Source of the DNA: Escherichia coli | GTDB taxonomy: Bacteria; Pseudomonadota; Gammaproteobacteria; Enterobacterales; Enterobacteriaceae | DNA: 64,000 nucleotides | NCBI RefSeq assembly: GCF_050920415.1 | Contig: NZ_CP169309.1 | Direction: 5' to 3' (one strand) | Part shown: piece by piece, positions 6,355-6,560 of the stretch | How the letters are laid out: each line of letters starts with the position of its first letter | Position numbering within the stretch: position 1 is the stretch's first letter | Translations under genes and position numbers: made by a program | The notes under the pieces: model-generated | Database searches by the model: none | What the model saw: only the letters and a program-made list of their open reading frames with translations | Told to the model about the DNA's origin: nothing

Positions 6355-6560
6355 CTGTGTTGTTATTGTCGGATGCGGCGTGAACGCCTTATCCGACCGA
6401 CACAGAGCACCGGACCCGTAGGCCTGATAAGACGCGACAGCGTCGCATCTGGCAATGTTGTTATTGTCGGATGCGGCGTGAACGCCTTATCCGACCGACA
6501 CAGAATACCGGACCCGTAGGCCTGATAAGACGCGACAGCGTCGCATCAGGCAACGCTGTG
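6355..6560. repeat. BIME/REP cluster, two tandem ~95-bp units
   Basis: Near-identical units containing gtcggatgcggcgtgaacgccttatccgacc and gtaggcctgataagacgcgacagcgtcgcatc repeated twice. Confidence 0.85.

Follow-up and report, generated by a model that had tools for sequence, protein, structure and literature searches.

A two-unit BIME-2 of variable copy number in the pepA–holC spacer of Escherichia coli

BIME-2 elements are defined by y and z2 REPs in tandem copies with short linkers, and the number of tandem copies at a locus varies among strains (PMC3333891). Linkers of BIME-2 are variable in length and sequence (PMC3333891). REPs of the y and z2 types are imperfect palindromes of 30–40 nt that can fold into a hairpin with an internal mismatch, and they form a high-copy family dispersed over intergenic regions. 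At its foot the palindrome has a conserved tetranucleotide, GTAG, which is required for binding and cleavage by TnpA(REP), as found by mutation to ACGA (PMC3333891). Length polymorphism of BIME-2 loci among strains is already present in the literature (PMC3333891; Bachellier 1997, as cited in PMC1187871). The type BIME-2 locus is REP325 (yjdM–yjdN, K-12), whose Y-l-Z2 unit is the basis of the Rfam naRNA4 model (PMC4550694). DNA gyrase binds BIME-2 in vivo and cleaves it preferentially, mainly at y REPs (PMC6379681). REP and BIME hairpins are cited in PMC1187871 and PMC12306157 as stabilising upstream mRNA and attenuating transcription. BIME-1 is single-copy (PMC3333891), with a z1 partner and a long L linker containing an IHF site.

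The window, a 64-kb stretch of E. coli DNA, contains a tandem array of composite REP units in the 260-bp spacer between pepA and holC (6345–6604; Table 1). The genes pepA, holC and valS are all located on the plus strand. The ORFs encoding PepA and HolC are 503 and 147 aa long. The start of valS overlaps the stop of holC at 7048, and PepA, HolC and ValS are all above the NCBIfam equivalog cut-offs. A single array is reported by Tandem Repeats Finder at 6347–6553 (period 98, 2.1 copies, 94% matches, no indels, score 379). A sequence-only reading of the window had placed here two near-identical composite REP (BIME) units, head-to-tail, between pepA and holC. This description is confirmed by Tandem Repeats Finder, by alignment and by NCBIfam. 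The tandem duplication and its location hold, but the unit is 98 bp long instead of about 95 bp, and the ends given, 6355 and 6560, are each about 8 nt off. The BIME was thus recognisable from the raw sequence by a first-pass reader.

Table 1. Features of the pepA–holC region. Positions are those of the window.
Feature	Position	Strand	Basis or remark
pepA (leucyl aminopeptidase) CDS, upstream flank	4833–6344	+	NCBIfam NF002072 equivalog, 1093 bits vs cut-off 826; ORF list
Stop codon of pepA, TAA	6342–6344	+	
Orphan z2-REP tail, 9 nt, GCATCAGGC	6347–6355	+	Just 3' of pepA stop; sequence, unit dissection
Tandem unit 1, 98 nt (Tandem Repeats Finder register)	6347–6444	+	
y-type REP copy 1, inverted (iREP orientation)	6368–6397	+	Pattern match; hairpin −19.2 kcal/mol, z −4.5; aligns with Y half of Rfam naRNA4
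Inner linker, 16 nt, ACAGAGCACCGGACCC, between y CGAC and z2 GTAG	6402–6417	+	Unit alignment
GTAG and z2-type REP copy 1, REP orientation	6418–6453	+	Hairpin −17.3 kcal/mol; aligns with Z2 half of Rfam naRNA4
Tandem unit 2, 98 nt	6445–6542	+	
Outer ('l'-position) linker, 12 nt, AATGTTGTTATT, unit 1 to unit 2	6454–6465	+	Rfam alignment: at naRNA4 linker
y-type REP copy 2, followed by CGAC at 6496–6499	6466–6495	+	
GTAG and z2-type REP copy 2, perfect stem	6516–6551	+	Hairpin −21.9 kcal/mol, z −6.6
Allele-specific spacer 3' of array, 24 nt, varying by allele group	6552–6575	+	
holC leader, 29 nt, ATTTAAATCCACCACAAGAAGCCCCATTT	6576–6604	+	3' boundary of variable region
holC (DNA polymerase III chi) CDS, downstream flank	6605–7048	+	NCBIfam NF004345, 336 bits vs cut-off 281

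The order of the spacer in the 5' to 3' direction is pepA TAA, TT, orphan z2 tail, two repeats of the series 12-nt linker, y REP with CGAC, 16-nt linker and GTAG with z2 REP, then 24 nt and the holC leader. Without the tetranucleotides, the REP stems on the plus strand occupy 6368–6397 (y), 6422–6453 (z2), 6466–6495 (y) and 6520–6551 (z2). Units 1 and 2 differ at 5 of 98 positions in the alignment (95% identity), namely 6352/6450, 6356–6357/6454–6455 and 6407–6408/6505–6506. The orphan tail beside the pepA stop occurs in every Escherichia BIME allele and is separated from the first y REP by a 12-nt linker. Its 9-mer recurs at the unit ends, at 6445–6453 (A/T variant) and 6543–6551; each unit is therefore bracketed by short direct repeats. 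The inner linker is the part of the unit that varies most among alleles. T at 6450 produces a stem mismatch in z2 REP copy 1. Folding energies of the four palindromes are −17.3 to −21.9 kcal/mol (z −3.5 to −6.6), each hairpin having an internal bulge or mismatch; the folds of both strands are stable, at −16 to −22 kcal/mol. The RNA fold of the whole spacer (z −6.95) contains long-range pairs joining REP copies, as near-palindromes would give; the hairpins were assessed from individual REP folds in preference to it.

By the published definition (y and z2 REPs, tandem copies, short linkers; PMC3333891), the sequence of the spacer element is that of a BIME-2. The y and z2 types are assigned because of the Rfam alignment to the REP325-derived model: naRNA4 (RF02564) matches 6421–6496 on the minus strand at full length (positions 1–77 of 77), with 75 bits against a gathering score of 59.5 and with both stems intact. 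On the plus strand the same model gives 54.8 bits, below the gathering score. In length, 16 and 12 nt, the linkers fit a BIME-2, for which a short S linker joining REP to iREP and flanking s, l or r motifs are described. The 64-kb window has six occurrences of the y-REP core and five of the z2-REP core; the expectation from shuffles is 0.00, which shows that the repeat is not due to chance. In E. coli genomes the spacer used as query has a median of 11–17 matching places per genome. The K-12 RefSeq record has a 159-bp pepA–holC spacer (one unit) with no repeat feature in its feature table. Taken whole, the best explanation of the locus is a BIME-2 of two 98-bp units, an inherited allele subject to homology-driven gain and loss of units; we hold this to be very probably correct.

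The array resembles REP325 in its alternating y and z2 REPs of opposite orientation, intergenic position and unit length of about 100 bp (98 bp here, 100 bp in REP325), and resembles REP325-class elements in copy-number differences from strain to strain (PMC3333891, PMC1187871). It differs from REP325 in having two units instead of about six, in the inner linker (AAATTCCCGCACCCTCC in REP325), in the reversed orientation to flanking transcription and in the tetranucleotide of the y REPs. GTAG is present in both z2 copies (6418–6421, 6516–6519), whereas the canonical CTAC is replaced by CGAC in both y copies (6398–6401, 6496–6499), read as GTCG on the complementary strand. CTAC is kept in unit 1 of strain APEC O78, relative to which the window has T>G at 6399, and in every K-12-type unit. 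With GTCG for GTAG (6399, 6497), both y REPs are slightly degenerate members of the family. An inverted, intergenic REP pair is also found in BIME-1. The BIME-1 (RIP/RIB) identity is ruled out by the z2 partner, the tandem copies, the lack of a long L linker and the absence of the IHF core motif WATCAANNNNTTR from both strands of the spacer.

Other REP or BIME sites of the window are located at 2247–2272, 30602–30679, 33777–33800, 39962–40030 and 48986–49009. Pairs of y and z2 REPs are present at about 30.6 and 40.0 kb; single REP cores are present at 2247, 33777 and 48986, the last one degenerate.

The match to naRNA4, the HU-binding RNA of REP325, brings in a reading by which the array encodes a similar small RNA that acts with HU, bridging REP cruciforms and condensing the chromosome. 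Consistent with it are the RF02564 score above threshold, the Y-linker-Z2 architecture and the presence of both the Y and the Z2 hairpins, each needed by naRNA4 (PMC4550694). The strand above threshold is, however, antisense to pepA–holC–valS, whereas the naRNAs of REP325 are read along the flanking genes yjdM and yjdN (PMC4550694 and the K-12 locus). The sense strand is sub-threshold, the linker differs, and the model in effect matches any Y-l-Z2 unit of a BIME-2. Moreover, about 26% of E. coli are devoid of the element, and no sigma-70-like promoter was found by a simple scan of 6200–6750. A small RNA gene at this site is accordingly rated as highly improbable, the match reflecting the sequence of the BIME-2 family and not a demonstrated RNA gene.

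Copy number was compared in 5,426 complete E. coli genomes. Counts based on BLAST coverage and identity of the whole spacer cannot resolve unit-number classes, since tandem units realign. Spacer length was determined independently of the allele, with both coding flanks joined as the query and the length taken from the matched span, in a systematic sample of 58 genomes. Spacers of 159 bp contain one unit (K-12 and relatives), of 257–260 bp two units, of 353–355 bp three units (BL21, Nissle, O157:H7) and of 449 bp four units (rare; strain E105). Spacers of 133 bp contain no BIME and no REP. The sample comprised 17 genomes with 133 bp, 5 with 159 bp, 11 with 257/258 bp and 25 with 353/355 bp. The GTDB representative of E. 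coli carries a four-unit allele, whose best match among complete genomes is 92%. BIME alleles are present in about 4,011 complete genomes. By direct query, the 133-bp allele is present in 1,401–1,406 of 5,426 (about 26%).

The sequence-only reading had expected a site of variable copy number between strains, to be checked by the intergenic length. Such variation was observed: E. coli has one, two, three or rarely four units, or no BIME; lengths are 133, 159, 257–260, 353–355 and 449 bp, and an identical two-unit structure in all strains was not seen. The observation is correct and represents ordinary BIME-2 behaviour, already known. It has little significance beyond housekeeping and opens no new question. 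As a marker, the spacer is length-polymorphic in steps of about 98 bp; it could confuse short-read assembly or serve in minor typing.

The 133-bp allele (e.g. E. coli Z142-4, extracted-locus positions 751–883) contains a different palindrome, CCCTCACCC...CCCTCTCCC-TAA-GGGAGAGGG...GGGTGAGG, and shares just the last ~29 nt before holC with the BIME alleles. The median number of places with partial relatives is 6 per genome, which indicates another dispersed repeat family; the sequence resembles BoxC. An Rfam scan of the allele gave sub-threshold chance matches only. No copy of the palindrome is present in the 64-kb window.

In E. coli CUVET20-416, an IS621 element (IS110 family) is inserted in the pepA–holC spacer right after GTAG of the z2 REP of unit 2 (extracted-locus positions 1467–3003). 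IS621 is specific for REP sequences (Choi et al. 2003, as cited in PMC1525189), and the insertion is consistent with this. The joined flank match is missing in only 3 of 5,425 genomes; disruptions of the spacer such as IS621 are therefore rare.

Functions can be proposed for the array from those of its family. As DNA, the y REPs would be preferred sites of gyrase binding and cleavage. As RNA, hairpins in the 3' UTR of pepA would shield upstream mRNA from 3' exonucleases and could attenuate read-through into holC–valS. The BIME is dispensable, because about 26% of E. coli genomes are without it. Translational down-regulation by REPs follows a rule, cited in PMC12306157, by which the hairpin starts no more than 15 nt from the stop codon. 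The pepA stop is at 6344 and the nearest complete REP stem begins at 6368, 23 nt further on; a role as translational down-regulator is not expected, as 23 nt exceeds the 15-nt limit.

Unit number itself might be under selection, tuning either the stability of pepA mRNA or the read-through to the essential holC–valS, with the length classes as functional alleles. Four stable hairpins lie between co-oriented genes, mRNA stabilisation and transcription attenuation by BIMEs are reported (cited in PMC1187871, PMC12306157), and a BIME is retained at pepA–holC across Escherichia species. But alleles of 0, 1, 2 and 3 units are each common in healthy lineages, K-12 having one unit and BL21 three, and the variable part does not include the conserved holC leader. 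Selection on copy number is considered improbable. Still less credence is given to an extended form of this proposal, in which two unrelated families of small repeats (BIME-2 with 1–4 units, about 74%; the 133-bp repeat, about 26%) would be long-lived alternative alleles, maintained for differing gyrase binding, topological insulation or holC–valS read-through, with unit number as a reversible tuning knob.

The holC leader is conserved in Escherichia, Salmonella, Citrobacter, Klebsiella and Enterobacter and in all E. coli spacer alleles, including the non-BIME allele. The ribosome-binding site is probably located in it, as perhaps are elements of a holC–valS promoter. Intrinsic terminators on the plus strand were not found by a simple scan of 6200–6750. 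The sole terminator-like site of this interval is on the minus strand, inside pepA, and the count is no higher than in shuffles.

The unit subtype of the window, with the inner linker ...ACAGAGCACCGGACCC, was found in 59 genomes. The same two-unit array at ≥99% is carried by 47 of these; in about 8 the span is shorter by exactly 98 bp, and the two-unit arrays of a few others have diverged. The window is identical to strain MFDS1022581. The window differs from APEC O78 at one position in the 260-bp spacer and at 28 of 1,520 positions in the flanks (about 1.8%). A near-identical array on differing flanking haplotypes implies that the array predates these haplotypes or has moved between them. Unit 2 of the window is identical to unit 2 of APEC O78. 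Unit 1 is identical to unit 1 of strain N96 and is distinguished from unit 1 of APEC O78 only by the substitution at 6399 (CCTAC to CCGAC). N96 combines unit 1 and the holC sequence of the window with unit 2 and the 3' spacer of a third allele type, and is thus a short-patch mosaic. On these comparisons, the array of the window is an inherited allele common to about 46 other genomes and not a fresh duplication.

The flanks of the array are a fine-scale recombination mosaic. The PepA protein is identical everywhere (WP_000397144.1). For the last 200 bp of pepA joined with the first 200 bp of holC, the combination of synonymous variants seen in the window occurs at ≥99% only in its own genome among 5,425; in others the identity is ≤97.5%. 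Sub-blocks of the flanks (5585–6344, 6605–7364) are shared by different strains. N96 has 1 difference in 760 nt over holC, with pepA not matching.

Recency of the duplication had also been proposed by the sequence-only reading, on account of the likeness of the two units, and this part is not upheld. The array is shared at ≥99% by 47 genomes and stands on differing flanks (spacer 1/260, flanks 28/1,520, window against APEC O78), both units have counterparts elsewhere, and the units differ at 5 positions, against 0 in the fresh duplication of strain E105. A tandem duplication of a single composite REP unit, strain-specific or restricted to a very young lineage, would fit the distance between the units (5/98, against 7–14 differences from the units of K-12, BL21 and B2-type alleles), the derived linker ...CACCGGACCC in both of them and the one-unit alleles of the same subtype in about 8 genomes. 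The one-unit alleles, however, carry the derived states of unit 2 (CCGAC, GAATACC), and on the APEC O78 haplotype they correspond to an exact 98-nt deletion. In strain ARL09/232 (one unit; extracted-locus positions 761–922), this deletion is accompanied by 1 SNP in 1,520 bp of flank relative to the two-unit APEC O78. Its endpoints lie anywhere in a 42-nt stretch shared by both units. CCTAC and G-C are present at the positions of the derived states in other alleles and species. Contraction from two units to one is parsimonious, because the reverse would need 4 substitutions in the new unit against 1 in the 1,520-bp flank. The probability left to a recent duplication is very small, and inheritance of the two-unit allele is preferred.

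Genuinely recent one-unit events are nevertheless recorded at this locus by the sequences of two other strains: the loss in ARL09/232 and a duplication in E105 (extracted-locus positions 361–809), in which a second copy of unit 2, with 0 differences, has been added to the BL21-type three-unit array. Loss and gain occur in exact one-unit steps, with junctions within long stretches common to neighbouring units. The 98-bp units would misalign by replication slippage or unequal homologous recombination. Misalignment would be aided by the 98-bp homology and by the direct repeat GCATCAGGC bracketing every unit. Repeated loss and gain, with short-patch recombination between strains, would hold the units of an array alike (concerted evolution).

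Gain and loss of units could also be catalysed by TnpA(REP)/RAYT acting on BIMEs in single-stranded form, with cleavage and rejoining at C|T sites of iREPs or linkers. Recombination at iREP and linker sites by TnpA(REP) is described in vitro, with products containing additional REPs, and the authors propose it as the basis of copy-number and linker variability in BIME-2 (PMC3333891). The z2 REPs of the window keep GTAG and the stem mismatch. Both y REPs, on the other hand, have lost GTAG (GTCG), and the two clean events are exact whole-unit steps with junctions in ≥42 nt of identity, for which homology alone suffices. TnpA(REP) is regarded as an unlikely agent here, and homology-driven misalignment is favoured; slippage, RecA-dependent recombination and TnpA(REP)-mediated recombination are indistinguishable by sequence alone. 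The locus is a clean, quantified case of known BIME-2 behaviour, namely gain and loss of single units, concerted evolution, displacement by a different repeat and targeting by IS621.

Species were compared with one representative genome each. E. albertii has three units and E. whittamii two; two further Escherichia species have two and one. The two units of E. whittamii differ from each other at 1–2 positions only. These REPs are not found in 70 other spacers of Enterobacteriaceae (Salmonella, Citrobacter, Klebsiella, Enterobacter, Kosakonia and related genera). With 1–4 units in the genus and absence from other genera, the BIME is old at the site and its unit number labile; the distribution places it at pepA–holC since before the split of E. 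coli and E. albertii. Units within one array tend toward shared lineage-specific states, the pattern expected from repeated loss and gain of units (concerted evolution).

The spacer upstream of holC seems to attract small repeats across genera. In S. enterica subsp. diarizonae it contains a single Salmonella-type REP (98 bp). In S. enterica subsp. arizonae it contains a 192-bp sequence (...CCCCAGGAGCATAG...GTGACTGGGGTG...) that resembles an ERIC/IRU element.
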